This document shows, in pieces, positions 4,101 to 34,891 of a stretch of 64,000 nt of DNA. The DNA is taken from the NCBI GenBank assembly GCA_973895155.1, contig OZ316899.1:13457934-13521933 (forward strand). Reading direction: 5' to 3'. Under the pieces are notes generated by a model. It saw nothing but the letters and a program-made list of their open reading frames with translations, did not search any database and had not been told where the DNA came from. Positions within the stretch are counted from its first letter, which is position 1; each line of letters begins with the position of its first letter. This DNA is from Marsupella aquatica (lineage: Eukaryota > Plantae > Marchantiophyta). Position numbers and translations under genes: made by a program.

Positions 4101-5117
4101 AAGCGAGAGAACAAATCTCTACTGGACCAGGTCCAGCTACTCAAGCAGGATGCCGATAGGCTTAGGAGGCAGCGGGATAGTCGCTCTCACTCAGGCGGCT
4201 CTGGCAAGCGTGCCAGGCATTAGCGGTAGAGTAGGATTAAAATAGAGTTAGGAATAGCTAAAACAGGCTATAGGGACAAGAGCCTGCCCTGGTTAGAGCG
4301 GCACTGCCATGTTGTCCAGCCTGCGTAGATTAGGATCTTCTAATAAGACAAGCCGTTTTACGGCCTGACAGCCAGCTTAGTTAGGATCTTAGTTAGCAAA
4401 TCTTCGGGCACGAGGCCACTCCGGTCCTTGGCTCTTAGTATTTAGTGCACCCCTCGGTAGAGGCGAGGGGGGGTTTGTTAGTCTCAAAGTGGGGCATCCG
4501 CGGTATGTGCGGGGAGTCCCGACCTCTACGAGTGAAAGAGTACCAAGGGGAGGGGGTAGGACTAAGCTTGCTGGGCGAGTGCGGAGCCGGGCTCCATTTT
4601 AGTGTACACCCTTGGCCTTGGACCTGTTCATTCGAGAGGTTTTGGGTCAACTAAGTGTACGTGTATGTCCCCTATGTAGTAAAATCCTTTCCCATTATTA
4701 CCTTCGTGTAAATCAAGATTGTGTGCTTGCATGTGCATATGTGTGAATCTCGTGTATGGGTGCCAACGCTTGGCCAAACACACTACCTGAGCCATGCACG
4801 GGGTGCAGCTTGCGGGTAAGTGGTTGCAAGCCCAGGTTGAGTGACCGTATCATCAAATCCGGATCGAAGGCGGACAGCACAAAGGCTTAAAAGCCCGTAA
4901 GCCGGGGTTGATCTCGCTATCGACTAAGGTATGTGCCGGCGGTGGAACACAAACCATACCTAGGAAGGGTCCGTAAATAATAGTAGACGCACTTAGCGCT
5001 AGTTTACGTGAGTTAGGTGCATTTTGGGCTTCCCTCCCTGCCCGAACCCTCATATTTACAAAGGATGTGCTTGTCTAAGCCGAAGCCCGGTTTAAGGCCT
5101 AGGCTGACGACGTGACA
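1150..5117 (+). mobile_element. Solo LTR (family A, 3968 bp) of the gene-in-LTR gypsy family
   Basis: TGTGACG...CGTGACA termini. 5-bp TSD ACCCA at 1145-1149 and 5118-5122. Colinear with the LTRs of the 18590-32695 element. Confidence 0.95.
1615..4223 (+). pseudogene. LTR-encoded ~870-aa protein, disrupted copy
   Basis: MSHTILSS... to ...GGSGKRARH*, pieced from ORFs 1615-2052, 2059-2484, 2460-3047 and 3297-4223. TAG stops at 2050 and 3045 plus frameshifts. Confidence 0.9.
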
Positions 5118-11760: not shown

Positions 11761-11889
11761 TGTGACACGGGTAACATGTCACTTAACCGAACGTAGCTCC
11801 TAGATTAAGACTTATACGGTCATTAGGACCGTAGCCGTAGCGTAGAATAGCACAAATAGTTGTCTTTGCCATTATGAATAGATTAGGAG

Positions 11890-14800: not shown

Positions 14801-15853
14801 AATTGGAAGAGGCATGCCAAGAGGCAGCTGAGGAGACAGACGCGATGAAGCGAGAAAATGAATCTCTGCTGGACCAAGTCCAGCTCCTCAAGGCGGACAA
14901 CGATAGACTCTGTAGGCAGCGGGATGGCTGCTCCCACTCGGACGGCTCTGGCAAGCGCACCAGACATTAGTGGAGGGTTAGGCTTAGAATAGACTTAGGA
15001 GTAGCTAAAATAGGCTGGTAGGACAAGTGTGGGCCAGAAGATAGCGGCGCTGACACATTAGCAGCCTGTGTAGAATAGGTTAGACTAATAGGACAAGCAG
15101 GCACTAGCTTAGCAAGGATATAAGTTAGCGTAGATTTGGGCACAAGGCCAGGCCGGTCCTCAGCCCTTAGTATTTAGCGGCCCCCTAGTAGAGGCAATGG
15201 GAGGGTGATTTTAGACTCAGAGGTTGGCCATTCGCAGTACGCGCGGGGAGTCCCGAACTCGGTGAAGTACCGGAGTGCCAAGGGGAGGGTATATGACTAA
15301 GCTCACTGGGCAAGTGCGGAGCCGGGCTCCGTTGTAGTGTATACTCCTTGGCCTTTGGGCCCGTTTGTTCACAAGGTGTCGGGTCAACCAATCGTAAAGT
15401 GTATGATCATAAATGAATGAAATCCTTTCTCCTTAATTCCTTCGTGTAAATCAAGATTTCTGTTATGTATGAATGCATGTATGAGTCTCATGTGCAAGTA
15501 TCAACGCCGGGCCGTACACGTTATGCCAACCGTGCACGGGGTGCCGGATATGGGTACGGGGTTGCGAGCCCGGGTTGAGCCCTTATACTAATGGATCCGG
15601 ATCAAAGGCGGTAACACAATGGCTTAGAAGTCCGTGAGCCGGGGTCGACCCCGTGTCGACTAAAGTACGTTCCGGCGGCGGAACACAAACTATACCTAGG
15701 AGGTGTTTGTACATAATAGTAAGCGCACTTAGCGCTAGTTTACGTGAGTTAGGAGCATTCTATGCGTCCCTCCCTGTCCGAACCCTCATATTTATGAAGG
15801 ATGTGTCTGTCTAAGCCAAAGCCCGGGTTAAGGCCTAGGCTGACAATGTGACA
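11890..15853 (+). mobile_element. Solo LTR (family A, 3964 bp)
   Basis: TGTGACG...TGTGACA termini. TSD AGGAG at 11885-11889 and 15854-15858. TATAAAA at 12244. Confidence 0.95.
12350..14970 (+). pseudogene. LTR-encoded protein, copy with multiple stops
   Basis: ORFs 12350-13309, 13367-13675, 13715-14092, 14301-14576 and 14731-14970 are colinear with 19056-21704. Confidence 0.9.
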
Positions 15854-15990
15854 AGGAGTAGGTTAGTTGACCAAATGATTACAACTTAAGGAAGGGGATT
15901 ATTACGCTCGACCGAGGTACGGTGGCTGCGGCGAAGTAAAAATCCGTTAGGAGATCATGCTTGGACCGAGACGCCAACTTCAGCTCATTA

Positions 15991-17908
15991 ATGACCAAAA
16001 TGGCCTTGCCCTCTCACGCTCGAGCTCACCCTGGCACCCCCCATAAGAGTGGAGTCGATGGCGCTGCAGGCCATTTGCTCATTTCTACCTTTTGGAATTT
16101 GCGGACGCTGCCATTCACTCTCGCCTTTTGCTCAAATCAAGCTGACCTTTACGAGGAGATTATCAAGGGATAAGAGCGGATTGTGGCGAGATTTAGTCAG
16201 GGCGAGTAAGGCCGCCACCAGCAAAAGGAACTGTCGGGCGGGAACGCGGACTCAACGAACCAGACTACAAAGGTTAGTATGACCCTTACAGCCTTGGGAT
16301 TTTGGACCTTGTTTGGCGAGGTAGGTGCTAAGTTCTCCGAGACTTACTGGTACTCTTGCCCCAAGAAAGCTGCTTACGAACAAAGATACGCAAAGTTGGT
16401 GGCCAAGGTAGCACAGGTTAACTGTGAGAAGACGGCCATCACCAGGGATCCCAGTTACAACGAGCTGCGGGATTACATCACCGAGCTATATATCAGCGAG
16501 GAGGGGTTTAGATCAGTGGAGCATCAGTTGGGACAGATCTTCTGTCTGCCAACCGGGCCGGTGACGGTTGAACTCCAAATTTGGGATAAGGAGTATACAC
16601 CTTGGCACTTCAAACCCGAGGGTAAGACAAACAACGGATACAAGTAGGGGTCGTGCACCGATTTAATCTGTATGGAGCGGCTTAACTTCATATGGACTAC
16701 CCTACACATGATTGAGCCACGATCCAAGATCTCCCTCTGCACGATCGTACAGGTGGAACAGTACAAACGGCGGAACTAGGCCCAATTCTTTTACCGTAGG
16801 TTCTCGGGGGAGCTTAAGCAGGCTCAAGGAGGTATGGCTATCGGGGGGAAGACTTACCTGGGAAGTCATATCGCCATCATCCTCGCCTCGTACAAGGCAC
16901 GGCGGGAGGCCAGGGGAAAGAATATGGCCACCTCAGCCCCGACTAATGTCACCCCCGCTATGGAGGAGGCTACCTCGAGCGAGCGGACTACCATGCCTCA
17001 GGCAAACCCCGAGCCCGCGGCCCCAACTAATACTCCGTCACCTCCTCCTATTGAAATTCTGCCACCCCCTTCCGTCGAACCTCCGCTACCCCCGGTTCAA
17101 CCACCCCCAATCCCTCAACCGCCTGAAGAAACCTTTCCCTCCCCTTTGCAGACTACGGAGGAGCTCGCCGCCCCGCCCGAGGAACCACCAGTGCCCGAGA
17201 GGATGGAGGACTACCAAGTAGCCCCAGGGACCATGGCCTACAACCTGGTCCAGAAGTTTAGCCAGACTATGTCAGGGGAGTTGGCAACGTACATCGGGCA
17301 ACAGGTTTCGTCGTACTTTCAACCAGCCTTCTTCATGTTGGAGCACCAACCACGGATCGTAAGCCGCTTGGAGGAAGAACTCATGGCAAAGGGGAACGAG
17401 ATCGGGTGCCTCCAAATGCTGGTAGAACACCTCGAGGAGGAGGCCACTACCCGCCGTGAGGAGTTAGTCCGCACCGTTGAACAGCGGGACGGACTAACCC
17501 AGGAGTTGAGTGGGGTGCAAATGGATCTCAAGAAGCTGAACAACACCGTGCTTCAGTTGCGCTCAGAATCCTCAGCTCGGGAGCCTGACCAACCTCAACA
17601 ACCAATTCCTGCAGGCAGCTCAGCAGGTGGCTTGTCTCTCCGCCAAACGGGATAAATTGCTGGCGTAGGACCATACCCATTGTGACTCCATTAACCAGCT
17701 CAACCTGGAGGTAGCATGGCTCCATGCAGAGGCCGATGAGGTGGCAAACAAGGCAGAGGAGGCGGTACGAGATAACAAAGCCTTGCAGGACCGCGTTACC
17801 CTACTCGTCCTCCAGCGGGCAAGACCTGGGCCCGCCTCTGATCAAGGCAGCTCAAGGTCTTGCCCCGACAAGGGGACAAACCCTGGTCCAACCACAACAC
17901 ACACGTAA
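15991..17908 (+). pseudogene. Family-B LTR-encoded protein (~640 codons), divergent homologue of the family-A LTR ORF
   Basis: IFCLPTG, NNGY, ERLNFIWTTLHMIEPRSKIS, IGGKTYLGSHIAIIL, VAPGTM...FSQ and EADEVANKAEEAVRDNKALQDRVTLL align with the family-A motifs. Several in-frame stops and a frameshift near 17585. Confidence 0.8.
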
Positions 17909-18947
17909 GGGGTGGTTAGCAAAGGGTGGGAGCAGGCGCCACACGAGGCAGTTGAGTCAGCAGCATCTTTTTGATTAGGCTTAACAATAGAATAGCTGTC
18001 ATTAGGTGTCGATTAGCGGCACAGTAGGAAGAATTAGGACAAGATCAGTTAGGATCAGCCAACATAGGATAGAGTCCATCAACGGACTAGATTTTGGTCA
18101 GTAGACTTAGCTACTGCCACCCCGGTCAGCGCCCTTGCCGCCGACGGTCAACCGGTTAGAGGAGTGCGGCCAGTTAGTCAGAAGGTAGTTAGTCAGTAGG
18201 CATTATCCCGAAAGGTAGTATCTTCCGGTTCCTTTCCACAACCGTAGTATTTAGGCCCTTCGCTGTGGGAGGGGGAGAAGGCTTAGTTATCTCAACGCAA
18301 GAAAAGGCGAGGCACAGGGAGTCCCGGCCTGAGCAGGGTCAGAGTGCACTACAGAGTGAGAGCCAGAGTCGAGCTTGCTGGGCAAGCGCGGGGCGGGGCC
18401 TCGTAGAGACTGAGCATCGACTATCGTTGGGCCCGCTGACCTCCTTAGAAGTCGAGTCAATTATGTAAACTGATTCTTTGCTGAGTAAATGTAGTCTTTT
18501 CCCTCTGATTCTATCGCGTGTAGTTGGTGTTGTGTGTATGTTTTGTCTGGGCAAAGGCGCCATTTCAAGGGACGTACTGGGTGTGGAGTTGTGACGCCGC
18601 CGGTACGGCGGTTAATGAGTGATTCAGTCTAACTGCGCTCGGCACGCGCGTTAGGTGGGTCTTAGGCCGCTATTATTAGCATAACGACAGTATTTAGGTA
18701 ATCATTAGGGGTAGGACATCATTAGGCAATAAGGGGGACTTCAGGTTCGGGCTGGCGGCGGGTCGCTATTCGCACACCCGGGTTACGAGCGTGGAGGGGC
18801 CCCTCCCTCGGGTCCGTATAACGAACTTAAGGAAGCGGCCACTGACGCACGCTGACTCAGACCGGCGGAGTGGCCGGTACACCACAAGCGTGAGCGGTTC
18901 AACCTATGGGCGTCGAGGAGACGTCGGGGATCGACAAGCCCTCAAAG

Positions 18948-18954
18948 TATAAAA
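18948..18954 (+). promoter_or_regulatory. TATA box of LTR promoter
   Basis: TATAAAA followed by a G-run and then a CT-rich leader, 108 bp upstream of the ORF ATG. Conserved at 12244, 29049 and 61810. Confidence 0.65.
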
Positions 18955-19055
18955 GGGGAGCCAACCCTTTGTAGTGCACCAGTCCATCAGTCCGCGCGCC
19001 AGCTTCGACCCCAGCTCTCTCGTTCTCTCTAGGTCGCCACTACTATCTCCTCTGA

Positions 19056-21704
19056 ATGTCGCACACGATCCTCTCCAGCTCGGCCATTCGATTCTGGACG
19101 CAGTTCCTATCTACCGGAAGGCACTTGGCCGATTCATTGAAACACGCCAACCCGCGCCGATACGAGATCGAACGCGAATACGAGAGAGCCATCCGCCTAG
19201 CAGGACGACACCACTACGTCCTTAACTTTGACTACCCGTCTCAGAGCGAGTTTTACTGACCAACTGAGGTATCTGGGTACTTCTTCAACGGAGACAAATA
19301 TATCGGGTTCTGGGAAGCATTGCTTCGGCTTCCGGACGAGGTCTTCAATATCCCGGGTACAATCGACCTGCAGCGACATCACTTCGACCACATCCCTGCC
19401 CAGGTTCGGGCTGTCATTAACGGCGAGTCCAGAACCAACCGTTCGACAAGGGCGTCCGCACTCGCTTCGGAGAACTTCTACCAGCACCTGCAGAGCTTCA
19501 TGGGAACTCGGCCATCAACCAACATGACCAACTCAGCCGGACCTGTACCCGTACCCGTACCCGTGCCCATGCAACCCCAGCCTCAACTTCAGCTTCAGCC
19601 TCAGCCGCAGCCTAGCCAAACCCCACCACCTATCACCCAGCCAGCACAGGTACGCTCCATCATCAACGCTGTGGATCTTAGCGATGACGACGAGGCTACC
19701 CCACCCTTGACCAGGCGGCCCAGAGGAACAAGCGCGCGGGGGGCCGATACTATATCGTCCCCACCCCCTGCTCTGACCCCAGGAGCGGCCCCAGCAGACA
19801 ACATAGTGACCGTGGCCGCCCCGGGCCCGTTACCAACCGCAGTGGCACTCCCCAGGCCCGATCGGGAGGATGGGGAAGTATCACCTTCCCCGAGTCAGTC
19901 ACGGGGAAAGAAGAGGAAGGAATCCGCCACTGCATCCGGGTTACCGTTGGCCACGGTAGCCGTAGCCAAGGTGACGATGCATCGCATGGGGAAAAACGTT
20001 CATAGCAACATCCTCCATCCCAAGCATGCGGTGTACCTGAAGACTCAGGGATTTGAGCACCTCACCTCTCTCCCCTGGAACACTTGCAGGTACTACGGGG
20101 AGGACATGACAGAATTCGTCAAGAATTATGACGACGTACGTCAACAGACTCGGCTGCGGGGAAGGAATATGTCCCTCACAGAAGAACGGCTCAAGATGAT
20201 CTTCGGGTTACCCGAAGGTGACCATCGAGTCGAATCACGGGCTCCCGGGGGCAAGGGGGCCAAGTACCAATCTTCAAGTTTTCCCTCAGAGGGATCAGTA
20301 GACAACGGGTTCGTGATGAGGACCTGCCTCATGCCCGAGATAGCTGAGCGGCTGGAGTTCCAGAGGTACGCTCTCCACATGATGGAACCCCGGGGGGAGA
20401 TCTCCGCCGCCCAGGTTATCCAGGTCGAGAACTATCGACCTAGGAAATGGGCGTCGTACTTCGCTAAGAAATTCCATGAAGAGATGGAGCGGCGAAGGAA
20501 GACGCTGTACATTGGCGGGAAGGCGTATTTCGCTAGCCATATCGAAATCATTCTTGAGTGGTACGCCCGGTTTGATCGACGAACCCTTCCCCGCATCAAC
20601 GTTACAAAGCTGGTCCCAGCTAGGTGGGTTTTTCCGGCATTGGAGAGACGGCCCCAACCCGAGGCCCGAAGTCCAGTGGACACGCCAGCTTCACCCACCC
20701 CACCTCCACAAATAGCTGTAATCGTAACCGAGGAGGCACCGGAGGGGTCGGTCGTCGCAACCGTTGATGCGACCCAACTAGCCGGGCTAAGTACAGAAGT
20801 TGGTACAATAGAGGTCTTACCCGAACCCGGGTCTCCCAAGGACCCGCCGGTGGCAATTCCGGAGAACCGGACATCGCTGCAGGAGGACACTCCAGCCCCT
20901 TCCAACGTTATGTCCCCAGGGCTGGACGTCACTGCCCCGGCCCCTGCGCGTGTTGATGTCTGCCCGTGCCCAAATCCGGACAGGCACAACTTGGACCACC
21001 CGGAACTCTTCGTAGAGGGTACGTTTCTGAACGGGCTTCTGGGAGATTTCTCTCATCAAATTGCCCAGGATACCGGGGAGTTCATGGCCCGGAAGGTAGC
21101 CTGTTTCTTCAATCAGGAGTTGGTTGCCGCCGTAAAGGCAGGTCGGGCCCAGTCGGAGGCCCTTCAGAGGATAGAGCGGTACCGGGTGGAGTCCGTGTAC
21201 CTAAAGAACGAAGTGGCGGCTCAAGAGGCTGAGCTTCTGCAACTACGACCCAAGGTTGCAGCCGCCGATGAGTTGTTAGCAAAGGCGTACGCTCTTACCG
21301 CCCTAGCCGAACAGGCCAAAGCTGGGAACGAGGTCGAGATTACACGACTCCGGAACCAGATTGACAGTTTGAAGAAACAAGCTGTCACCTGGCAGAAAGA
21401 CCTGGAGGAGGCCGAGGAGCGAGCCCAGCGGGACGTGACGGAGATAGTCACGCTGCAGGCCGAGATGGCGCGGCTCCAAACCGAGGCCGAGAAGCAGGAC
21501 CAGCTGGCGAGTAAACTGACGAGCGACGCCCAGCAGCTGGAGGAGGCATGTCAGGAGGCAGCAGAGGAGACGGACGCGGCGAGGCGAGAGAACGAATCTC
21601 TGCTGGACCAGGTCCAGCTCCTCAAAGCGGACAATGACAGGCTTCGAAGGCAGCGGGATGGCCGTTCCCATTCGGGCGGCTCTGGCAAGCGTGCCAGGCA
21701 TTAG
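19056..21704 (+). CDS. LTR-encoded 882-codon protein (N-terminal domain, P/Q-rich linker, PMD/Athila-ORF-like core, coiled coil, C-terminal KRARH); one CGA>TGA stop at 19257
   Basis: ORFs 19056-19259 and 19320-21704 are in the same frame. The 3' LTR and 61918 copies have CGA at that codon. Confidence 0.85.
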
Positions 21705-22615
21705 CGGCGGAGTAGGAATAGATTAGGATTAGGATTGGCTTAGTCAGGCTCTTGGGACAGGCACCTACCTTAGGTACAGCAGCGCTGCCCTGCTGTCCAG
21801 CCTGCGTAGATTAGGATCTTCTAATAAGACACAGCCGTTTTCCGGCCTGACTGTCAGCTTAGTTAGGACCTTAGTCAGCGAATCTTCGGCGAGAGGACAC
21901 CCCGTTCCTCGGCTCTTAGTATTTAGTGCACCCCTCGGTAGAGGCAAGGGGGGGGTTTTTAGTTTCAGAGTCGAACATCCGCGGGACATGCGGGGAGTCC
22001 CGACCTCTGGGAATGACAGAGTACCAAGGGGAGGGGGTAGGACTAAGCTCGCCGGGCGAGTGCGGAGCCGGGCTCCGTTGTAGTGTGCACCCTCGGCCTT
22101 GAACCTGTGCATTCCAGGGCTGTCGTGTCAACTAAGTGTACGCATATGTTCCCTTTGTAGTAAAATCCTTTCCCATCATTTTCCTTCGTGTAAATCGAGA
22201 TTGTATGCATGTGTGCGCATATGTGTGTGGGCTTCTCGTATATGGGTGGCAGCGCCAGGCCGAACGCACTACCCGAGACGTGCACAGGGTGCAGCCTGCG
22301 GGTAAGTGGTTGCGAGCACGGGTTGAGGACCTGTATCATCGAATCCGGATCGAAGGCGGACAGCACGAAGGCTTAGAAGCCCTTAAGCCGGGGTCGATCC
22401 TGCTATCGACTAAGGTACGTTCCGGCGGCGGAACACAAACCATACCTAGGAGGTGTCCGTATTTAGCAATATGCGCACTTAGCGCTAGTTTACGAGAATA
22501 AGGTGCATTACGTGCTTCCCTTCCTGCCCGAACCCTTAGATTTACGAGGGATGTGCCCGTCTAAGCTGAAGTCTGAGTTAAGGCCGAAGCCTACGACGTG
22601 ACATAGCCTTTGTTT

Positions 22616-22633
22616 TGGCGCTAGATGGAGGGG
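22616..22633 (+). other. Primer-binding site, probably tRNA-Asn
   Basis: TGGCGCTAGATGGAGGGG matches the complement of the plant tRNA-Asn(GTT) 3' end as I recall it (TGGCGCTAGAAGGAGGGG), 1 mismatch. Lies 12 nt after the LTR. Confidence 0.7.
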
Positions 22634-22726
22634 GCACTCTACATATCGTAGAGGGGAGACATGTGCGTATTCACCTAGGCAGGATACATCAGGACGTAGT
22701 ACTAACCATTGCATTTATATGAGTAA

Positions 22727-25700
22727 ATGCCCATCACTCGTTCTCAAGCAACTTACTTGAGGAGATTGACCAGCGAACGAGAAAGTGCAACCACAACAAG
22801 CTCCGACTCGTCGGGCTCGGAGGACTCGCAATCGTCCCGACGTATGAACATACCCCCGGGATCTTCGGGGTCCGGTTCGACCGGCCCTGCTGCGGTTCCA
22901 CCACCACCACCACCACCACCTATGGCAGCCGCTCCACCGGTGGCCCGCGCTGCTCAGGCGCCTCCACAAATATCGCAACGATCGCGATTTCATTATCGAC
23001 CTTTCAAAGGGCGTCATGGGGATGATCCGGATGAATGGTTGGATGAGTTTGAAGCCACTGCTAAAGCTAATGGGGAAGATGCCATTAAGCTAACCGTCCT
23101 CTCGGGAGTGATGCGGGGAGAAGCTCGTCCATGGTACAACTCGTTACCACCCGGGACTACCTGGGCACAATTCCAAGCTGCATTGCTGCAGGAGTTTTGT
23201 GCCATTGGATCAGAACAGCGTTCTCTATTAAAGATTGGCCAGCTTCGCATGGGAAAAAAAGAGTCCCTGCGGAAATTCATTCAGAAGTTTCAGAAACTTG
23301 CGGCCAAGATCCGGCCCAGGCCAGGAGACGCGCTCCAGCTTACATGGTTCCTTCATGGTTTGCCCATGAATATGCAATTCTGGGTACGCCAGAATAATCC
23401 AATTTCAATGCAGGCGGCCATAGCGTGCGCCGAAACTTACCGGGAGTCCACCTATAACTCCCGGCGGAGCCAGCGAGCACGCCGCAAGAAGGGTAAGTAC
23501 GAAACCTTCAGTGACAGTGACTCCGAATCGGACGACGAGAGGAAGAAGAAACGCAAGAAGAAGAAGAAACATCGTTCGACCTCGTCCAGCTCCGAGACGG
23601 AATCCAGTTCGGATTCAGCTTCAAGCATCGGATCCTCTACCTCCAGTTCATCAGGAAGTGACTTGGAGAGCGAAAGCCGGAGCAAAAAGAAGAAGAGACG
23701 AGTGAAGAAGGAGGGGAAGATTAAACCCCGGGCGCGAAGAACGATACCAGATCCAAAGGCTGCCGAAGCAGACAAGCTGAACGAAATCACGGATCGACTC
23801 AAAGCACTGTCAGTACATCTTGCAGAAAAGCCGGTGGAGAAGAAGAAGCCATCTGAGATTCGAACCCATGCGTGGTGTTCAAAGTGCTTCCAATCCGGCC
23901 ATGTGGTGCAGGAATGCCCAAGGTGGAAGAACCGAGTTCACCAAGTAGAGCTGGATGATGTTGACAACCCGGGCCCCGAATCGGAGTCCACGGAGTATTT
24001 CTTTGAGGACCCTCCTGATTCCGTGTACCAGATTTCAACGGTAGGTCCGCGTAATTTAGCGGGTAGAACTGCGTACCCCTACCCAAGTAATGGCCGGAGT
24101 TTCCAGGTTATCAGTAACCCGAGCATCCCTCCTAAGCCAGGGATTTGGCGGTCCCCGGTTTGTTACAACTGTGAAAATCCAGGACACTTTGCGAGGGAAT
24201 GCACCGAACCAAGACGTCAGGGAGATGGCCGAGGCACCCCACTATGTCAAGTTTGCAAAACGGAGGCTCATTCCACGGCCAACTGCCCGTTGGTAATCGC
24301 TGCTCGAACGAGTGCGGCTAGACCGGCCCAGGCTGGACCAGTCACGAGCGATGCAGTCGTCCAAATGATTGCTGTAGAATGGCAAGATGACAACACCGAG
24401 TGGGTGAATCTGGTGGACGTGGCGGAACACCCTAATCCATTGGATGAGGCCGAGTGCTACCGAGTGTCGACAAGGGCCGAACGGAAGGAAGAAAAGACGG
24501 AGGAGAAACGGAGGAAAAAGCAAGATACTACTCTGGTGCAGCTAGCGATAAATATACCCCCGGAAAAGGACGATGACTACCGAAGGGACGACCCGAAGCT
24601 GTTTTTCCCCCACATCGAAGAATTGGTAAAGAAACAGCTGGAGGCTTACGAAGCTCGGGAATACCAAAAGGCAATCGATAAGGACATCAAAGCAGCCGAG
24701 ACAGCCCGGCGTCAGGAGCAAGAAAAGCAAGATAAACAAGAGGAAGCCAAGCAGCAGCCAACGAAAGAAACAAAGGAGGACTATGATATTAAGGAGGACG
24801 TGAAGAGTTGCCCGGTTACAGCGACGGTGGGGCAACTGCTGCAGAACAACCCACAGTACAGACGACAACTGAGGGAGTTGCTCATGGGTCGCCGAAGGAG
24901 GAGACTACCCCGAGTTGGGAGTGCGGACTGCAACATGATATGCGAGGACCTTGGAGCGCCGGACATCTCGATCGAAATTAATAACTGTACCATCAAGATG
25001 GTTCTTGTAGACGGAGGAGCGGGAGTCAACATCATGACTGAAGAAACGTCAATCAAGTTAGGATACCTCACGTATCAACCCACGGCCCGAGCTATCAGAT
25101 TAGCAAACGGGGCAAGGGTCCTCCCATTAGGCACGCTCACACGAGTGCTCACTCTGGTGGGAGGGGTAGAGTTCTATCTCAACTTCTTAGTCATGAGGCC
25201 GGTTCGTCCCTCCTCTTATCCGGTTCTTCTGGGCAGGCCGTGGTTGTACGGTGGCCGCGTAGTCACGGATTGGGGAAAGAAGGAGCTACGGTTCGGGGAA
25301 CCCACCGTACGGGTATCCTGGGCAATGGACGATTATCAGGGAGAAACCCCACAAGGACCCGAGGAATATGATTCGGAGACCTCGGAGGAAGAGGAACTCA
25401 ATATGATCGAACTCATCTCGTCCCTATCCGAGGAAGATGTCTTCGGAGTTGAAGCAACCCGAGAAACACATCTCCTAAATTACCCGAGGGCTGCCATTGA
25501 GTCCACCCCAAGTACATCTACTGTCGGGGATGAGGAAACGCACAAACAACTTGTCGAGACGGAGGACACGGCTCCAGCTAAGCAGGGAGCCGAGGCTACT
25601 CCTTCCATTTCAGAGCCTCGTAACCATGAACCAGCCCAACAACCGCCTGAGGCCGAAAACTCGAGACCGAGACATAAAAAGCGAGTCTCATGGGATCCGT

Positions 25701-26578
25701 CCATTCCGCAATTCGAGGAAGTAAACCCCATCCCGAGACCAATCCCGGTCCCACCCATGTACGGAGGGGTTCGGTTAGCTGAGCTTGACGCGAGCCTGGA
25801 CCCAAGTCTGCGAAACCAGGTTGAAGTCATCAGGAAGGAGCACTACCGGAAGTACACTATTGGGATGGACAAATCTTTTAACCTGGGCCACGCTCTGACG
25901 GGGAAGGCTGAAAAATCCATCCAAGCTTTGCTCAAGGAATATGAAGATGTGTTTGCATGGAGTCATCATGATTTAACAGGCGTCTCCCCCGAGTTGGGAG
26001 AACACACAATCGATCTGAACCTAGGAGCCCATGCGGTACGACAGCGACAACGTCGCATGAATCCGAGGTACTCCATCTTAGTGAAGGAGGAAATTGATCG
26101 TCTCCTCGCCGCCGATATCATTTACCCGGTAATGGCCAGCGACTGGGTCTCTCCCATTGTCATTGTACCAAAGAAGGGAGGTACGGATGGAAAACCTAAG
26201 ATTCGTATCTGTCAGGACTACCGTAAGCTGAATGACGCAACCCGAAAAGACCATTACCCATTACCATTCACGGATATGGTTCTAGATATGGTGGCCCGAA
26301 ATGAAATCTATACATTTCTTGACGGGTATTCAGGTTATAACCAAATCTGGATTCGTCTCACGGATCAGCTCAAAACAACTTTCACTACGGAGTGGGGAAC
26401 GTTCGCATTTCGGAGGATGCCTTTTGGTCTGTGTAACGCCCCGGCTATGTTTCAGCGCCTTATGATGAATATCTTCCACGATTTCCTACGGGAATTTTTG
26501 GAGATATTTATCGATGACTTTGCCATCTTCGGAACCGTTGCCATGCACCCCGAACACCTACGACGAACGTTGCAATGA
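22727..26578 (+). CDS. gag-pol: Gag-Pol N-terminal part: retrotransposon Gag, three CCHC knuckles, aspartic protease, RT (ends at a premature TGA)
   Basis: DPDEWLDEF/ARPWY Gag; CSKC..GH...EC, CYNCENPGHFAREC and CQVC...H...NC; LVDGGAGVNIM protease; CQDYRKLN, LDGYSGYNQI, MPFGLCNAPA, FIDD. TGA at 26576 corresponds to an Arg codon in the old copy. Confidence 0.95.
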   Translation: MPITRSQATYLRRLTSERESATTTSSDSSGSEDSQSSRRMNIPPGSSGSGSTGPAAVPPPPPPPPMAAAPPVARAAQAPPQISQRSRFHYRPFKGRHGDDPDEWLDEFEATAKANGEDAIKLTVLSGVMRGEARPWYNSLPPGTTWAQFQAALLQEFCAIGSEQRSLLKIGQLRMGKKESLRKFIQKFQKLAAKIRPRPGDALQLTWFLHGLPMNMQFWVRQNNPISMQAAIACAETYRESTYNSRRSQRARRKKGKYETFSDSDSESDDERKKKRKKKKKHRSTSSSSETESSSDSASSIGSSTSSSSGSDLESESRSKKKKRRVKKEGKIKPRARRTIPDPKAAEADKLNEITDRLKALSVHLAEKPVEKKKPSEIRTHAWCSKCFQSGHVVQECPRWKNRVHQVELDDVDNPGPESESTEYFFEDPPDSVYQISTVGPRNLAGRTAYPYPSNGRSFQVISNPSIPPKPGIWRSPVCYNCENPGHFARECTEPRRQGDGRGTPLCQVCKTEAHSTANCPLVIAARTSAARPAQAGPVTSDAVVQMIAVEWQDDNTEWVNLVDVAEHPNPLDEAECYRVSTRAERKEEKTEEKRRKKQDTTLVQLAINIPPEKDDDYRRDDPKLFFPHIEELVKKQLEAYEAREYQKAIDKDIKAAETARRQEQEKQDKQEEAKQQPTKETKEDYDIKEDVKSCPVTATVGQLLQNNPQYRRQLRELLMGRRRRRLPRVGSADCNMICEDLGAPDISIEINNCTIKMVLVDGGAGVNIMTEETSIKLGYLTYQPTARAIRLANGARVLPLGTLTRVLTLVGGVEFYLNFLVMRPVRPSSYPVLLGRPWLYGGRVVTDWGKKELRFGEPTVRVSWAMDDYQGETPQGPEEYDSETSEEEELNMIELISSLSEEDVFGVEATRETHLLNYPRAAIESTPSTSTVGDEETHKQLVETEDTAPAKQGAEATPSISEPRNHEPAQQPPEAENSRPRHKKRVSWDPSIPQFEEVNPIPRPIPVPPMYGGVRLAELDASLDPSLRNQVEVIRKEHYRKYTIGMDKSFNLGHALTGKAEKSIQALLKEYEDVFAWSHHDLTGVSPELGEHTIDLNLGAHAVRQRQRRMNPRYSILVKEEIDRLLAADIIYPVMASDWVSPIVIVPKKGGTDGKPKIRICQDYRKLNDATRKDHYPLPFTDMVLDMVARNEIYTFLDGYSGYNQIWIRLTDQLKTTFTTEWGTFAFRRMPFGLCNAPAMFQRLMMNIFHDFLREFLEIFIDDFAIFGTVAMHPEHLRRTLQ

Positions 26579-26638
26579 TGCCGAGATGTTAACCTCAAAC
26601 TACATCCCGCCAAATGCTTCTTCGGGGTAGAGGAGGGG

Positions 26639-28723
26639 GTGTTACTCGGGCATCGTGTGTCCAAACGGGGCATTGAGGTGGACCAAGAGAAAGTTGCGGC
26701 CTGGATGGCGGTGGTGTTCCCCTTGGATCAAAAAGCAGTACGATCCTTCTTGGGCTGCGTAGGGTATTACCGCCGGTTCATTAAAGACTTTGCTAAAATT
26801 GCGTTGCCCTTAACTGAGATGATGAAGAAGGACGCAGCGGTCGAGGAGACACCCCGGAGATGGATTGCTTTTGAGGAACTCCGTAAACGACTCACCACCG
26901 CGCCTATCATGGTCACCCCAGACTGGAATAAGGAGTTCCACGTGTATGTCGATGTGTCAGGGTTCTGTATCGGATCCGTACTTAGTCAGCTAGATGAGGA
27001 TGGACGTGATCACCCCATCTATTTCGCTAGCCGTCAACTATTTGCAGCCAAAAAGAATTATTCCCCCACTGATCGAGAAGCTTTGGGAATAATCTACTCG
27101 TGTAAAAAGTTCCGACACTATCTGCTAGGCTACAAGGTCATTTTCCACACGGATCATGATAGCCTGAAGTACATGGTCAACAAAGCGGATGTGACAGGAC
27201 GGATAGCCCGGTGGGTGCTACTTCTCCAGGAATTTAATTACGAAGTTCGGGTTCGGCCAGGAAGGGTACACCTCAATGCCGATTTCTTTTCACGACTGGA
27301 CGGCGTACCAGTCGATCAGCCAATTGATGATATTTTTCCGGATGAGGAGTTGTTCCACGCGGGGGAAGGGACACCAACGTGGTACGGCTCAATAATCACC
27401 TTCCTTTTAACGGGCCGCATCCCTGACGGCATCAATCAGGAGGCCGCCGCTGTGTTTTTACGGAAAGCCGGGCCTTACGTCATGATACAGGGTCACCTAC
27501 ATAAGGAAGGTATTAACGGAAAGTTACGACGCTGCTTAGAGTATAAGGAGACACTTATCATGATACGGGCCCTGCATGAAGAAGAAGCTGGAGGCCATTT
27601 CGCGGCAGTTACGACAGCCCGAAAGATTCTGGACTCGGGGTATTGGTGGCCTACGTTGCATCGGGATGTACAGCGCTTCATTAAGGGCTGTGACTTGTGT
27701 CAGCGAGAGGGGGCCCCGAGGCGGGCTCATCATCACCCGCTCACATCTGTGCTTCCATTGGCACCATTCGAAAAATGGGGAATTGATTATATCGGACCGT
27801 TCACTCCCGTTACCCGAAGGCGAAGGTGCAGGTACATCCTATTAGCTATTGATTACTCCACCAAATGGGTCGAAGCGCGGGCTACAGTAAAGGACGACGC
27901 CGCCGCAACCAGTGCCAGATTCTTATACGAACAGATTTTCACCCGATTCGGACCGCCCTTAGAATTGGTAAGCGACCGTGGAACCCACTTCCTTAATGAT
28001 ACCGTAGCCCAGCTTACGGAGCGTTACCTAGTCAAGCACCGCAAGACTACCCCATATCATCCTAAAGCCAACGGGATGGCGGAGAGAGCAAATGGTATCA
28101 TTGGGAAGATCCTCAACAAAACTGTAGCTGCGCACAAAACGGATTGGGATGATAAGTTGTACGCGGCGGTGTACTCGTATAATCTAGCTTACAAAACTAC
28201 TACGAGTCACAGCCCGTACTTTCTGGTGTTCGGCCAACATTCGTTGGTGCCCGTCGAATTTGAAGTGCACACTCCACGGGTTAGCATTCGGGATCGCTTA
28301 CCTAAATCTGAAAGTCTGTCAGACCGAGCTTATCAGATTGAAGCCTTGGAAGAAGCACGGCTACTGGCAGCTCGACACACCGTGAAGAAACAGGCAACTT
28401 CGAAGAAGCAGCATGACAAAGGACTACGGAGGGTCGACGTCGTGGCAGGCGATCTAGTCCTTCTGTACGATAGTAGGTACATGCAGTTTCCAGGGAAGCT
28501 GCATACCCGGTGGTTGGGGCCCTTCCTTGTCAATCAGATCTACCAAAACGGATCTTTGGAGCTTGCGACGTATGCCGGCGATTTACTCCCCACGCGAATC
28601 AGCTACGATCGTGTAAAAAAGTACCAGCATCAAGATGACGACGCCGATAGCGATGTTCGCGAGGATGCTTCACAATTAAGCAGGGAGCTATGTGACGCCG
28701 TCGGTACGGCGGTTAATGAGTGA
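26639..28723 (+). CDS. pol: Gag-Pol C-terminal part: RT thumb, RNase H, integrase (same frame as 22727-26578)
   Basis: LLGH, FLGCVGYYRRFI, VYVDVS...NYSPTDREAL...TDH; H..GH..CDLC zinc finger; GIDY, SDRG, NGMAER; GPF tail. No chromodomain. The stop codon lies inside the 3' LTR. Confidence 0.95.
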   Translation: MLLGHRVSKRGIEVDQEKVAAWMAVVFPLDQKAVRSFLGCVGYYRRFIKDFAKIALPLTEMMKKDAAVEETPRRWIAFEELRKRLTTAPIMVTPDWNKEFHVYVDVSGFCIGSVLSQLDEDGRDHPIYFASRQLFAAKKNYSPTDREALGIIYSCKKFRHYLLGYKVIFHTDHDSLKYMVNKADVTGRIARWVLLLQEFNYEVRVRPGRVHLNADFFSRLDGVPVDQPIDDIFPDEELFHAGEGTPTWYGSIITFLLTGRIPDGINQEAAAVFLRKAGPYVMIQGHLHKEGINGKLRRCLEYKETLIMIRALHEEEAGGHFAAVTTARKILDSGYWWPTLHRDVQRFIKGCDLCQREGAPRRAHHHPLTSVLPLAPFEKWGIDYIGPFTPVTRRRRCRYILLAIDYSTKWVEARATVKDDAAATSARFLYEQIFTRFGPPLELVSDRGTHFLNDTVAQLTERYLVKHRKTTPYHPKANGMAERANGIIGKILNKTVAAHKTDWDDKLYAAVYSYNLAYKTTTSHSPYFLVFGQHSLVPVEFEVHTPRVSIRDRLPKSESLSDRAYQIEALEEARLLAARHTVKKQATSKKQHDKGLRRVDVVAGDLVLLYDSRYMQFPGKLHTRWLGPFLVNQIYQNGSLELATYAGDLLPTRISYDRVKKYQHQDDDADSDVREDASQLSRELCDAVGTAVNE
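28678..28690 (+). other. Short polypurine tract
   Basis: AAGCAGGGAGCTA immediately before the 3' LTR. The related GGGAGTTA precedes the minus-strand LTR at 53758. Confidence 0.55.
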
Positions 28724-31700
28724 TTCAGTCTAACTGCGCTCGGCACGCGCGTTAGGTGGGTCTTAGGCCGCTATTATTAGCATAACGACAGTATTTAGGT
28801 AATCATTAGGGGTAGGACATCATTAGGCAATAAGGGGGACTTCAGGTTCGGGCTGGCGGCGGGTCGCTATTCGCACACCCGGGTTACGAGCGTGGAGGGG
28901 CCCCTCCCTCGGGTCCGTATAACGAACTTAAGGAAGCGGCCACTGACGCACGCTGACTCAGACCGGCGGAGTGGCCGGTACACCACAAGCGTGAGCGGTT
29001 CAACCTATGGGCGTCGAGGAGACGTCGGGGATCGACAAGCCCTCAAAGTATAAAAGGGGAGCCAACCCTTTGTAGTGCACCAGTCCATCAGTCCGCGCGC
29101 CAGCTTCGACCCCAGCTCTCTCGTTCTCTCTAGGTCGCCACTACTATCTCCTCTGAATGTCGCACACGATCCTCTCCAGCTCGGCCATTCGATTCTGGAC
29201 GCAGTTCCTATCTACCGGAAGGCACTTGGCCGATTCATTGAAACACGCCAACCCGCGCCGATACGAGATCGAACGCGAATACGAGAGAGCCATCCGCCTA
29301 GCAGGACGACACCACTACGTCCTTAACTTTGACTACCCGTCTCAGAGCGAGCTTTACCGACCAGCTGAGGTATCTGGGTACTTCTTCAACGGAGACAAAT
29401 ATATTGGGTTCTGGGAAGCATTGCTTCGGCTTCCGGACGAGGTCTTCAATATCCCGGGTACAATCGACCTGCAGCGACATCACTTCGACCACATCGCTGC
29501 CCAGGTTCGGGCTGTCATTAACGGCGAGTCCAGTACCAACCGTTCGACAAGGGCGTCCGCACTCGCTTTGGAGAACTTCTACCAGCACCTGCAGAGCTTC
29601 ATGGGAACTCGGCCATCAACCAACATGACCAACTCAGCCGGACCTGTACCTGTACCCGTACCCGTGCCCATGCAACCCCAGCCTCAACTTCAGCTTCAGC
29701 CTCAGCCGCAGCCTAGCCAAACCCCACCACCTATCACCCAGCCAGCACAGGTACGCTCCGTCATCAACGCTGTGGATCTTAGCAATGACGACGAGGCTAC
29801 CCCACCCTTGACCAGGCGGCCCAGAGGAACAAGCGCGCGGGGGGCGGACACTATATCATCCCCACCCCCTGCTCTGACCCCAGGAGCGGCCCCAGCAGAC
29901 AACATAGTGACCGTGGCCGCCCCAGGCCCGTTACCAACCGCAGTGGCACTCCCCAGGCCCGATCGGGAGGATGGGGAAGTATCACCTTCCCCGAGTCAGT
30001 CACGGGGAAAGAAGAGGAAGGAATCCGCCACTGCATCCGGGTTACCATTGGCCACGGTAGCCGTAGCCAAGGTGACGATGCATCGCATGGGGAAAAACAT
30101 TCATAGCAACATCCTCCATCCCAAGCATGCGGTGTACCTGAAGACTCAGGGATTTGAGCACCTCACCTCTCTCCCCTGGAACACTTGCAGGTACTACGGG
30201 GAGGACATGACAGAATTCGTCAAGAATTATGACGACGTACGTCAACAGACTCGGCTGCGGGGAAGGAATATATCCCTCACAGAAGAACGGCTCAAGATGA
30301 TCTTCGGGTTACCCGAAGGTGACCATCGAGTCGAATCACGGGCTCCCGGGGGCAAGGGGGCCAAGTACCAATCTTCAAGTTTTCCCTCAGAGGGATCAGT
30401 AGACAACGGGTTCGTGATGAGGACCTGCCTCATGCCCGAGATAGCTGAGCGGCTGGAGTTCCAGAGGTACGCTCTCCACATGATGGAACCCCGGGGGGAG
30501 ATCTCCGCCGCCCAGGTTATCCAGGTCGAGAACTATCAACCTAGGAAATGGGCGTCGTACTTCGCTAAGAAATTCCATGAAGAGATGGAGCGGTGAAGGA
30601 AGACGCTGTACATTGGCGGGAAGGCGTATTTCGCTAGCCATATCAAAATCATTCTTGAGTGGTACGCCCGATTTGATCGACGAACCCTTCCCCGCATCAA
30701 CGTTACAAAGCTGGTCCCAGCTAGGTGGGTTTTTCCGGCATTGGAGAGACCCGAGGCCCGAAGTCCAGTGGACACGCCAGCTTCACCCACCCCACCTCCA
30801 CAAATAGCTGTAATCGTAACCGAGGAGGCGCCGGAGGGGTCGGTCATCGCAACCGTTGATGCGACCCAACTAGCCGGGCTAAGTACAGAAGTTGGTACGG
30901 CAGAGGTCTTACCCGAACCCGGGTCTCCCAAGGACCCGCCGGTGGCAATTCTGGAGAACCGGACATCGCTGCAGGAGGACACTCCAGCCCCTTCCAACGT
31001 TATGTCCCCAGGGCTGGACGTCACTGCCCCGGCCCCTGCGCGTGTTGATGTCTGCCCGTGCCCAAATCCGGACAGGCACAACTTGGACCACCCGGAACTC
31101 TTCGTACAGGGTACGTTTCTGAACGGGCTTCTGGGAGATTTCTCTCATCAAATTGCCCGGGATACCGGGGAGTTCATGGCCCGGAAGGTAGCCTGTTTCT
31201 TCAATCAGGAGTTGGTTGCTGCCGTAAAGGCAGGTCGGGCCCAGTCGGAGGCCCTTCAGAGGATAGAGCGGTACCGGGTGGAGTCCGTGTACCTAAAGAA
31301 CGAAGTGGCGGCTCAAGAGGCTGAGCTTCTGCAACTACGACCCAAGGTTGCAGCCGCCGATGAGTTGTTAGCAAAGGCGTACGCTCTTACCGCCCTAGCC
31401 GAACAGGCCAAAGCTGGGAACGAGGCCGAGATTACACGACTCCGGAACCAGATTGACAGTTTGAAGAAACAAGCTGTCACCTGGCAGAAAGACCTGGAGG
31501 AGGCCGAGGAGCGAGCCCAGCGGGACGCGATGGAGATAGCCATGCTGCAGGCCAAGATGGTGCGGCTCCAAACCGAGGCCGAGAAGCAGGACCAGCTGGC
31601 GAGTAAACTGACGAGCGACGCCCAGCAGCTGGAGGAGGCATGTCAGGAGGCAGCAGAGGAGACGGACGCGGCGAGGCGAGAGAACGAATCTCTGCTGGAC

Positions 31701-32695
31701 CAGGTCCAGCTCCTCAAAGCGGACAATGACAGGCTTCGAAGGCAGCGGGATGGCCGTTCCCATTCGGGCGGCTCTGGCAAGCGTGCCAGGCATTAGCGGC
31801 GGAGTAGGAATAGATTAGGATTAGGATTGGCTTAGTCAGGCTCTTGGGACAGGCACCTACCTTAGGTACAGCAGCGCTGCCCTGCTGTCCAGCCTGCGTA
31901 GATTAGGATCTTCTAATAAGACACAGCCGTTTTCCGGCCTGACTGTCAGCTTAGTTAGGACCTTAGTCAGCGAATCTTCGGCGAGAGGACACCCCGTTCC
32001 TCGGCTCTTAGTATTTAGTGCACCCCTCGGTAGAGGCAAGGGGGGGGTTTTTAGTTTCAGAGTCGAACATCTGCGGGACATGCGGGGAGTCCCGACCTCT
32101 GGGAATGACAGAGTACCAAGGGGAGGGGGTAGGACTAAGCTCGTCGGGCGAGTGCGGAGCCGGGCTCCGTTGTAGTGTGCACCCTCGGCCTTGAACCTGT
32201 GCATTCCAGGGCTGTCGTGTCAACTAAGTGTACGCATATGTTCCCTTTGTAGTAAAATCCTTTCCCATCATTTTCCTTCGTGTAAATCGAGATTGTATGC
32301 ATGTGTGCGCATATGTGTGTGGGCTTCTCGTATATGGGTGGCAGCGCCAGGCCGAACGCACTACCCGAGACGTGCACAGGGTGCAGCCTGCGGGTAAGTG
32401 GTTGCGAGCACGGGTTGAGGACCTGTATCATCGAATCCGGATCGAAGGCGGACAGCACGAAGGCTTAGAAGCCCTTAAGCCGGGGTCGATCCTGCTATCG
32501 ACTAAGGTACGTTCCGGCGGCGGAACACAAACCATACCTAGGAGGTGTCCGTATTTAGCAGTATGCGCACTTAGCGCTAGTTTACGAGAATAAGGTGCAT
32601 TACGTGCTTCCCTTCCTGCCCGAACCCTTAGATTTACGAGGGATGTGCCCGTCTAAGCTGAAGTCTGAGTTAAGGCCGAAGCCTACGACGTGACA
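28691..32695 (+). repeat. 3' LTR (4005 bp)
   Basis: Direct repeat of 18590-22603 with a 9-bp in-frame deletion near 30750. Confidence 0.97.
29157..31796 (+). CDS. LTR-encoded 879-codon protein in the 3' LTR; one CGA>TGA stop at 30594
   Basis: ORFs 29157-30596 and 30741-31796 are in the same frame. The stop differs from the one in the 5' LTR copy. Confidence 0.85.
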
Positions 32696-33007
32696 GGAGT
32701 AATGGTAGGGATTGCCACCCATTGCATACTACAAGGTTTTGTCGCGTCGATGGCTTGAAAGCCCCAAGCCGGGAGTTAGTCCGAGTCACTAACTGTGGGA
32801 ATATTCCAGCGGTGGAAAACAAATATACCTATCACCAGTACGAGTTGCATAAGTATTATACCGGTAAGTAGATTGACTTAGCCGGACTTAGGGCTAATCG
32901 AGGCCACTACACACCTCCTTGCCCAAACCCTCACCTCTACTAGTGGTCGAGGTCGCCCCATGGAACTAAACTGGATTTAAGGCCCGGGTTAAGGGTGCAA
33001 CAAACAG

Positions 33008-34861
33008 CTATTGAGGCACCTTCTTCTATGCCAGACTCAACAATTATTGCAACCCTGGATGCCCAAAACCAGGCCCGCACAATCAAAGCCAATTGGGTTC
33101 AAGTTGGCCCCAAACCCAAGGCCGTAATTCTAGAGGAATCTGCGGTACCCTTTGCGCCTGTGAAAATGGATCCCCTTGTTGGACGCCCCTGCCCTTCTAC
33201 CCTTACTACCCCGGGGCTGGACGTAACAACCCCGACCTCTTCCCGGGTAGAGGTCTGTCCCTGCCTGAACCCGACTAGGCACAACTTGGTGAACCCATAA
33301 CTCTTTGCACCGGGCACGTATTTGAATGGGTTGTTGGGCGACTTCTCCCTACAAATTAGTCAGGAAATGGGGGAGTTCATGGCCCGCAAGGTGGCTTACT
33401 TCTTCAACCAAGAGCTGGTGGCAGCAATAAAGGCAGGGCAGGTTCAAGCGGAAGCCACAGCCAAGATTGAGCGATATTGGGCGGAGGGAACCCAACTATT
33501 ATATGGAGCCTCAACTCGAGAAACCGAGCTGCAACTTCTTTGGCCTCAGCTTACAACCGCTCTGGCTCAGGTCACCAACACCAAAGCCAAGTTAGCCTTA
33601 GTCGTACAAGCCAAAGCCAAAAAGGACACCAAAATCTCATGGCTTGGGGCTCAGATTGATGGCTTGAAAGGACAAGCCGTAATCTGGCAGAAGGACATAG
33701 AGAAGGCCGACACTCGGGCCCAAAGGGATACAGCCAAGGTGGATGCCCTGAAAGTGGAAGTGGCACGGCTTCTATAGAAAGTGGCTAAACAAGACCAACT
33801 GGTGGCACAGCTGACAAGCGACGGCCAGCAATTGGAAGAGGCGTGTCAGGAGGCCGTAGAGAAGACGGATGCGGTGAAACGAGAGAACGAGTCTCTCCTG
33901 GACCAAATCCAGATCCTCAAGCAGGAGGCTGACCGGTTGAGGAGGCAATGGGATGGCCGCTCCAAGTCCCACTCGAGCGGGTCTGGCAAACGTGCCAAAC
34001 ATTAGTGGCGTGACAAGTTTAGAATAGCGTAGGTTTAGCCAAGGAAATCGGACACTGCAGACAAACACCAAAACTAGTTAGCGGCGCTGTCAACCCTCTT
34101 TTAGTATAGAATCTTAGGATAGAAACAAGTTGTTTTGCGCCTGGCTCTTAGCTGAAATTAGAATAGATTAGATTCAAGCACATGACTGTTCCAGGCCATG
34201 GCTCTTAGTTAGTATTTAGTGCACCCCCAGTAGAGGCCGTAGGGGGGAGGACTTTAGGTTTAGAATTGGGTATCCATGGATGTGCGGGGAGTCCCAACCT
34301 TAGTGAATGAAAGAGTACCACGGAGGGAGGGTACGACTAAGCTCACCAGGCGAGTGCGGAGCCGGGCTCCATTTTAGTGTACGCCTTCCTACCATTAGGC
34401 CTGTTTATTCCCAAAGAAGTCAAGTCAACTGTGTATGTGTGTATGACGGATTTTTAATTAAAAGTCTTTCCCCCATCATTTCCTTCGTGTAAACCGAGAT
34501 TGTATGTTGTGGAATCTGTTATGGTCATAAATCTCGTATCCGAGTATAGAACAACTGCGGATAGTGGTTGTGAGCTCAGGCTAGATATCCGTATCATTGG
34601 ATCCGGATTGGAGGCAGATAACGCAAAGGCTTAGAAGTCCTTAAGCCGGGGTCAATTCAACCATCAACTTAAGGTATGTTCCGGCGGGGGAACACAAAAC
34701 ATACTTGTGATGTGTGTAGAATAAAATTTGGATGCGGGTAGCGTCAAGTTATGGGAGTAAGTGCATTTTGCACGTCCCTCCTTGCCCAAAACCTCAATAT
34801 TTACAAAGCTTATGGCCACCTAAGCCAAAATCTGTGTAAGGGCGACTCTTTTGGCGTGACA
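33008..34861 (+). repeat. Right piece of the old element's 5' LTR, including the C-terminal remnant of the LTR ORF (to 34005)
   Basis: VCPCLNP..., NGLLGDFS..., QQLEEACQEA...SGSGKRAKH*. Ends CGTGACA at 34861. Confidence 0.85.
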
Positions 34862-34873
34862 TAGCCTTTATTT

Positions 34874-34891
34874 TGGCACTAGATGGAGGGG
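34874..34891 (+). other. Primer-binding site of the old element
   Basis: TGGCACTAGATGGAGGGG, again 12 nt after the LTR end. Confidence 0.7.

Follow-up and report, generated by a model that had tools for sequence, protein, structure and literature searches.

Introduction

Large accessory open reading frames (ORFs) are known from several plant long terminal repeat (LTR) retrotransposons. According to the accessible parts of the relevant papers (PMC6317226, PMC7264820, PMC11963269, PMC5418596), ORF1 and PMD-A of Ogre, ORF-1 of Athila and the TRP28/SMC-like ORF of Retand belong to non-chromoviruses and combine a PMD-superfamily-like domain with a coiled coil. Reviews and surveys (PMC7264820, PMC11963269, PMC6317226), in their available text, place the extra ORFs of plants in the internal region, and the long LTRs of Diaspora contain no long ORF in the excerpt at hand of its description (PMC1142308). 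A clear precedent for an LTR-encoded gene, in the part of PMC11998498 that is open, is sag of mouse mammary tumour virus (MMTV). VANC21 and VANC6 are encoded by Arabidopsis VANDAL elements, which are Mutator-like DNA transposons, and VANC has been described, in the passages available, as dicot-specific. Here, we analyzed a window of 64,000 nucleotides from the liverwort Marsupella aquatica (contig OZ316899.1, positions 13,457,934 to 13,521,933, forward strand; coordinates below count from its first letter). It contains a Ty3/Gypsy retrotransposon (18590-32695) each of whose two LTRs holds a gene of 882 codons, called the LTR gene below.

Results

The two repeats of the element (18590-22603 and 28691-32695) are 98.75% identical in a self-comparison of the window. 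They begin with TGTGACG and end with CGTGACA, and the target site duplication (TSD) GGAGT is present on both outer flanks of the 14.1-kb element (Table 1). Their limits are independently set by two solo LTRs with TSDs of their own (1150-5117, ACCCA; 11890-15853, AGGAG), and TSDs are 5 bp long in all three bounded insertions. In addition, a contig of one public sequencing run (X1) represents the empty site, connecting 18577 to 32696 with the element missing, and the whole element is deeply covered in this run and in a second one (X2). In view of the matching repeats, the internal gag-pol, the TSD-bearing solo LTRs and the empty-site contig, the repeats are LTRs. A segmental duplication or an assembly artefact could be suspected from the primer binding site (PBS) lying 12 nt off the LTR, the weak polypurine tract (PPT) and the discordance between the two LTRs in their middle region. 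However, three independent TSD-flanked insertions have identical ends, the solo LTRs refute this explanation, and the empty-site contig and deep coverage in both runs reduce its chance to almost nothing.

Within the LTR, a TATAAAA box at +359 is followed by an ATG at +467 and an ORF of 882 codons ending at +3115, and the LTR limits given by the TSD-bearing solo LTRs include this ORF. About 30 stops would be expected from composition over its length. Those observed are located at 19257 (5' LTR), 30594 (3' LTR), and 62464 and 63001 (a third young copy, starting at 61452); each is private, and no stop position is common to more than one of six aligned copies. Young copies differ from one another by indels of 6 or 9 bp.

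Selection was estimated by pairwise Nei-Gojobori dN/dS with bootstrap 95% confidence intervals (CIs), using three diverged copies, namely the two solo LTRs and a partial older LTR. The ratios were 0.245 (CI 0.20-0.31) and 0.178 (0.14-0.22) versus the two solo LTRs and 0.206 (0.13-0.30) versus the partial older LTR. The remaining sense frames gave 0.96-1.75; the antisense frame sharing third positions gave 0.27-0.38, yet is full of stops. Transversions alone show the same selection bias, and indels are multiples of three in 11 of 17 cases inside the ORF versus 6 of 49 outside. The central domain (aa 301-530) is the most constrained (0.085-0.113) and the proline-rich linkers the least (0.23-0.52); values are 0.14-0.22 for the C-terminal coiled-coil region and 0.16-0.23 for aa 1-150. 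We therefore regard the presence of a selected gene inside a true LTR as almost certain. The preliminary description of this DNA, which had been made from the sequence alone, agrees with these results throughout: LTRs with TG..CA ends and a GGAGT TSD, a TATA box near 360, an ATG near 467 and a 2.65-kb ORF in each LTR, different stops in each young copy with an open consensus, young-copy indels of 6 or 9 bp, and many synonymous changes, the dN/dS against the diverged copies of the window (0.178-0.245) not being near 1. Its proposal that the LTR houses an accessory gene subject to purifying selection, with two copies of it in the DNA of each element, is likewise supported.

Table 1. Positions of the main features in the analyzed window.
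Feature	Position	Strand	Remarks
Solo LTR	1150..5117	+	sister subfamily, 75% nt identity; TSD ACCCA; decayed gene
Solo LTR	11890..15853	+	sister subfamily, 78% nt identity; TSD AGGAG; decayed gene
Decayed homologous gene	16279..17655	+	25% aa identity; in LTR-like host sequence E
TSD GGAGT, left	18585..18589	+	outside 5' LTR
5' LTR	18590..22603	+	4014 bp; TGTGACG..CGTGACA; same-extent solo LTRs have own TSDs
Upstream TTAG cluster, candidate cis-element	18651..18725	+	6 sense-strand TTAG, including conserved YAGTATTTAG (18688-18697)
TATA box TATAAAA, likely LTR-gene promoter	18948..18954	+	followed by pyrimidine-rich leader
LTR gene	19056..21704	+	882 codons; one private stop (19257)
N-terminal helical domain	19080..19430	+	about aa 9-125; conserved in full-length homologs
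Central domain	19956..20585	+	about aa 301-510; predicted VANC21/DUF1985/PMD-type fold
C-terminal predicted coiled coil	21123..21665	+	then basic KRAR motif near C-terminus
Downstream TTAG cluster, candidate binding site or second TATA-like box	21701..21962	+	12 sense-strand TTAG, including YAGTATTTAG (21917-21926)
Poly(A)-signal-like hexamer, candidate end of R	22159..22164	+	AGTAAA/AATGAA/AATTAA; conserved position
Best splice-donor-like site of LTR	22412..22420	+	9/9 to consensus; 8/9 in 3/3 other copies
PBS-like site	22616..22633	+	TGGCGCTAGATGGAGGGG; 12 nt past LTR; kept at 34861 element
gag-pol	22727..28723	+	single frame, one stop (26576); Gag, CCHC, protease, RT, RNase H, integrase
Weak PPT	28678..28687	+	AAGCAGGGAG; within integrase coding end
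3' LTR	28691..32695	+	4005 bp; second gene copy 29157-31796; private stop 30594
TSD GGAGT, right	32696..32700	+	outside 3' LTR
Older subfamily D LTR, 3' part	32947..34861	+	gene's C-terminal third, then PBS-like site, gag (34988)
Homolog, family C	57715..60747	+	stop-free, 1010 codons; 26% over central domain; left flank truncated
Young LTR copy	61452..64000	+	ends at window edge; two private stops

A structural comparison of the 882-aa protein, which the preliminary description had recommended, indicates that the central domain very probably has the predicted VANC21/PMD-type fold. Since this fold superfamily includes the internal extra ORFs of Ogre and Athila elements, it is the location of the gene that is novel, not the kind of protein. 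At the sequence level, no match to PF10536, PF03078 or PF04195 was obtained: for PMD, Athila ORF-1 and Transposase_32, no Pfam match lies above the curated cut-off (the best is Transposase_32 at E 0.059, in one of 42 members), and Atlas scores of 0.79-0.80 for this comparison are leads only. DUF1985 (PF09331) was not found among the first 25 of 62 families listed for the 42 aligned members, up to E 10, and no solved PMD structure is among the structure matches. Pfam coiled-coil matches are all sub-threshold. The protein carries motifs resembling nuclear localization signals (NLSs), from which nuclear targeting is predicted.

Other kinds of protein were also considered. An env-like membrane protein for cell-to-cell movement would agree with the orientation of the gene, which is sense, and with its likely derivation from a 3' extra ORF, a position occupied by the env-like genes of Athila and SIRE in the portions of the literature accessible; however, the absence of any hydrophobic segment (best 19-residue Kyte-Doolittle mean, 1.13) and of a convincing match among viral models makes it highly improbable. 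A captured host gene or nested DNA transposon, passively carried in the LTR, might be suggested by the occurrence of VANC-like and PMD folds in Mutator-like transposons and host genes. Nevertheless, no terminal inverted repeat or TSD pair surrounds the LTR gene, which has neither introns nor a transposase, selection is detected between LTR subfamilies, and the same layout is present in a divergent family (E) at 25% protein identity. This possibility is largely refuted, and we consider it very unlikely.

Sense-strand TTAG is enriched in two clusters, one on either side of the gene, with six copies at +62 to +133 and 12 at +3112 to +3370 versus two in the gene body, and the downstream cluster is present in every related LTR. 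The longer motif YAGTATTTAG occurs once per cluster. All of its 11 matches in the window are located in non-coding LTR sequence, including family E; they are copies of two sites and not independent events, and the downstream site is invariant in all four aligned copies as well as in family E. The first seven letters of the motif are those of the VANC21 target YAGTATTAY, as given in the available text of PMC5735166; YAGTATTAY itself is absent from the window. The TATA box is retained in the 11890 solo LTR and altered in the 1150 solo LTR.

Based on these features, we propose that the LTR gene would be transcribed from its own TATA box into an mRNA of ~3.2 kb ending near the poly(A)-like signal (~+3570), and that every kind of LTR (5', 3' or solo) could express it. 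After entering the nucleus, the protein would oligomerize via its coiled coil and bind the TTAG/YAGTATTTAG-rich flanks, countering host silencing in trans on all family copies; nuclear entry, binding and anti-silencing are inferred from the fold and from parallels with VANC and MAIN/MAIL. A DNA-binding regulator of its own LTR is the role that we slightly favor, and a specifically anti-silencing function is suggested more tentatively by the same analogy. An alternative is that selection maintains the protein as an accessory factor for a different role, such as tethering of the integration complex to chromatin or related elements, nuclear import, or the handling of RNA or particles. The long coiled coil and the NLS-like motifs are compatible with this, similar roles have been proposed for the extra ORFs of Retand and Grande in the source text accessible, and three of four young or solo insertions sit in non-coding flanks of homologous LTR genes. 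However, the best-conserved part of the protein matches a sequence-specific DNA-binding anti-silencing protein, and in a window so dense in repeats, four insertions are an insufficient basis for inferring targeting. We consider such a role rather unlikely.

As to its position in the transcript, the gene probably lies in U3 rather than R. Its entry into the LTR could date from a shift of the PPT to a site upstream of what had been a sense 3' extra ORF, and the final 33 nt of gag-pol overlap the 3' LTR, as expected from such a shift. Genomic/gag RNA would then start downstream of the LTR gene, and the conserved donor-like site there hints at a separate gag transcript. Alternatively, the same gene, likely with the same role, would be placed within a very long R (about +390 to +3600) and thus at both ends of the genomic RNA, a single promoter yielding the mRNA by early polyadenylation in the 5' LTR and the genomic RNA by read-through. 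This would fit the position of the only canonical TATA box ahead of the gene and of the conserved poly(A)-like signal behind it (+3570), and strand transfers within R could yield the tract of LTR differences and the breakpoints near +1000 and +2900, although the tract is accounted for just as well by template switching or ectopic gene conversion in U3. On the other hand, a long R requires a strong-stop DNA of ~3.6 kb and that gag be translated despite the 882-codon ORF ahead of it, with no donor-like site from the TATA box to the ATG, and in retroviruses, LTR genes such as sag are located in U3. Sequence hints on the genomic RNA start relative to the gene point both ways; on balance, the long R appears doubtful.

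Taken as a whole, the explanation that a selected LTR gene with a VANC21/PMD-type fold binds motifs of its own LTR and maintains transcription against silencing is, in our estimation, about evenly poised between right and wrong. Several observations weigh against it or qualify it. None of the three young copies in the window is stop-free, and gag-pol has an in-frame stop at 26576; in three public runs, the contigs show the stop letter rarely or not at all. Young-versus-young dN/dS values (0.55-0.72) are uninformative, with CIs that span 1, and the selection signal therefore stems from between-subfamily comparisons. No VANC-style tandem array is present, and the likeness of YAGTATTTAG to the VANC21 target may be due to chance because VANC targets diverge quickly. 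Finally, the hint of a separate gag transcript should be treated cautiously in view of upstream ATGs and a weak acceptor.

The element shows the Gag-protease-reverse transcriptase (RT)-RNase H-integrase order, TG..CA LTRs and a TSD of a Ty3/Gypsy non-chromovirus, and domain analysis of the gag-pol frame detected neither aRH nor a chromodomain. Tat lineages with aRH (TatI-III, Ogre, Retand) were rejected, as the element has a single RNase H with catalytic motifs, directly followed by integrase. Phygy, which requires a 4-bp NCGN TSD, no extra ORF and a length of 7.7-10 kb, was also rejected given the 5-bp TSDs, 14.1-kb length and extra ORF. In a tree whose references carry no lineage labels, the element clusters with those of Calypogeia, Riccia and Marchantia and is separate from seed-plant matches. 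The dN/dS of gag and RT (about 0.05-0.06) is tighter than that of the LTR gene, with dS near saturation. The PBS-like site starts with TGG, is conserved between subfamilies (22616-22633 and about 34874-34891), has no 9-12 nt self-priming match within the LTR, and presumably resembles a motif of Retand elements.

At least one far more divergent family of the window (E, 25% aa identity) has the same gene-in-LTR layout, and its occurrence in both D and E indicates that the layout is old within the lineage. Family E begins with TGTGAC at 11761 and survives in three pieces (11761-11884, 15859-18584 and 32701-32945), its 3' end being lost; it aligns to the 3' part of the LTR with scores of 224 and 99 versus shuffled means of 113 and 53. 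The young element is inserted in its 3' non-coding part, and a short inverted repeat, TGTGACA...TGTCAC, lies within the first 25 bases of its start (11761-11787). Subfamily D has an LTR end that matches, along with a PBS-like site and gag, and the likely 5' piece of its LTR is at 11410-11760. Nested insertions split the older element D (11410-11760, 32947-53119): its LTR contains E and the young element, its gag an insert of ~290 bp (35530-35820), and its RT/RNase H further inserts, in addition to ~11 kb that include a CACTA transposase (43663-45958). Much of the D LTR is absent at the E/D junction near 32945. Near the CACTA transposase region (41657-41900, 44953-44997), there are a 54-bp repeat and telomere-like repeats (GGGTTT/AGGGTT). 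The family C frame (57400-60747) is stop-free over 1115 codons, 1010 of them from the likely ATG; its left side is joined to a Copia element on the minus strand that lacks an LTR end, and the young 61452 LTR has inserted downstream of the frame, in a TTAG-containing region. Copia elements, both decayed and in opposite orientations, lie at 54895-57400 and at 884-1094 plus 5706-6536; they are 67-69% alike, and one of them hosts the 1150 solo LTR. Three of the targets at the insertion sites (11885, 18585, 61447, 1145) are purine-rich (AGGAG, GGAGT, AGAAG), a possible preference in numbers too small to judge.

Between +662 and +2880, 37 of 2210 sites differ between the 5' and 3' LTRs, compared with four of 1795 elsewhere. 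The 3' LTR has derived states, including a 9-bp deletion, in common with the 61452 copy and not with its 5' partner, and each of the three subfamilies is a mosaic that switches near +1000 and +2900. To judge from these patterns, copies exchange the gene block through template switching or gene conversion. In the tract (19251-21469 versus the 3' LTR), with 1.7% versus 0.2% divergence, the two LTRs differ in ancestry; dating by LTR divergence is therefore unreliable and would overestimate the age about fivefold.

Discussion

The LTR gene resembles VANC21/VANC6 (PMC5735166; PDB 9LNJ, 9LNK; sources available in part) in the predicted fold of its central domain, and also in its disordered linkers and coiled coil, its status as an accessory gene encoded by a transposable element, and the short motifs in the non-coding flanks. 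In contrast to VANC, it resides in the LTR of a Ty3/Gypsy retrotransposon of a liverwort, identity is 9-11%, there is no DUF1985 Pfam match or tandem target array, and its activity is putative. The PMD-C proteins MAIN, MAIL1 and MAIL2 reportedly have the same fold as VANC (accessible parts of PMC5418596 and bioRxiv 10.1101/2024.09.27.615353) and act with DNA motifs against Polycomb silencing, but they are angiosperm host genes without a sequence match here. What is said here of VANC and MAIN/MAIL function follows the open portions of PMC5735166, PMC13547354, bioRxiv 10.1101/2024.09.27.615353 and PMC5418596.

Like the extra ORFs of Ogre, Athila and Retand, the LTR gene is kept across copies, and it likely has its own promoter, as does Grande gene23. 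Those ORFs have been described from the internal region, either ahead of gag or in the stretch from pol to the 3' LTR, whereas the present gene is wholly in both LTRs and survives in solo LTRs. With MMTV sag, it has in common a complete selected gene wholly inside the LTR, as in U3-encoded (sag-type) genes, duplicated per provirus and with recombination between copies; however, sag belongs to an animal retrovirus with an LTR of ~1.3 kb and encodes a membrane protein without homology to the likely nuclear product of this 2.65-kb plant gene. By analogy, the LTR gene would act like a VANC-type regulator and is sited like MMTV sag, while being a member of neither family.

The preliminary description had called the architecture one not known from plants. 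In agreement with this, no plant LTR-internal gene or VANC-like factor of a retrotransposon was found in the literature searched, although absence is not proven, as subscription papers were largely outside coverage. VANC-like factors in retrotransposons are still to be investigated according to the text available from PMC12844716, and PMC12885004, in its accessible part, only mentions liverwort lineages. In REXdb, sense extra ORFs of TatII occur 5' in 23% and 3' in 26%. Because extra ORFs are counted there, as far as the excerpt goes, by position relative to gag-pol, LTR-borne ORFs may hide in these counts, which could include such genes.

The LTR gene represents a gene family that is real, under selection, undescribed and unusually located. 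What extra ORFs do in plant LTR retrotransposons has, in the sources as far as available, long been an open question, and this gene is directly testable, as it offers a structural lead, an unusual address and candidate target motifs. Annotation that relies on LTRs can conceal such genes or count them twice. Since solo-LTR formation retains the gene, it escapes the main host deletion route. Somewhat speculatively, the LTR may be an autonomous anti-silencing cassette that combines a promoter, a VANC-like gene and its own targets, and solo LTRs may keep reactivating the family in trans. If true, this would be the first VANC-type system in a retrotransposon, and the use of this fold by transposons would be far earlier than the eudicot VANDALs.

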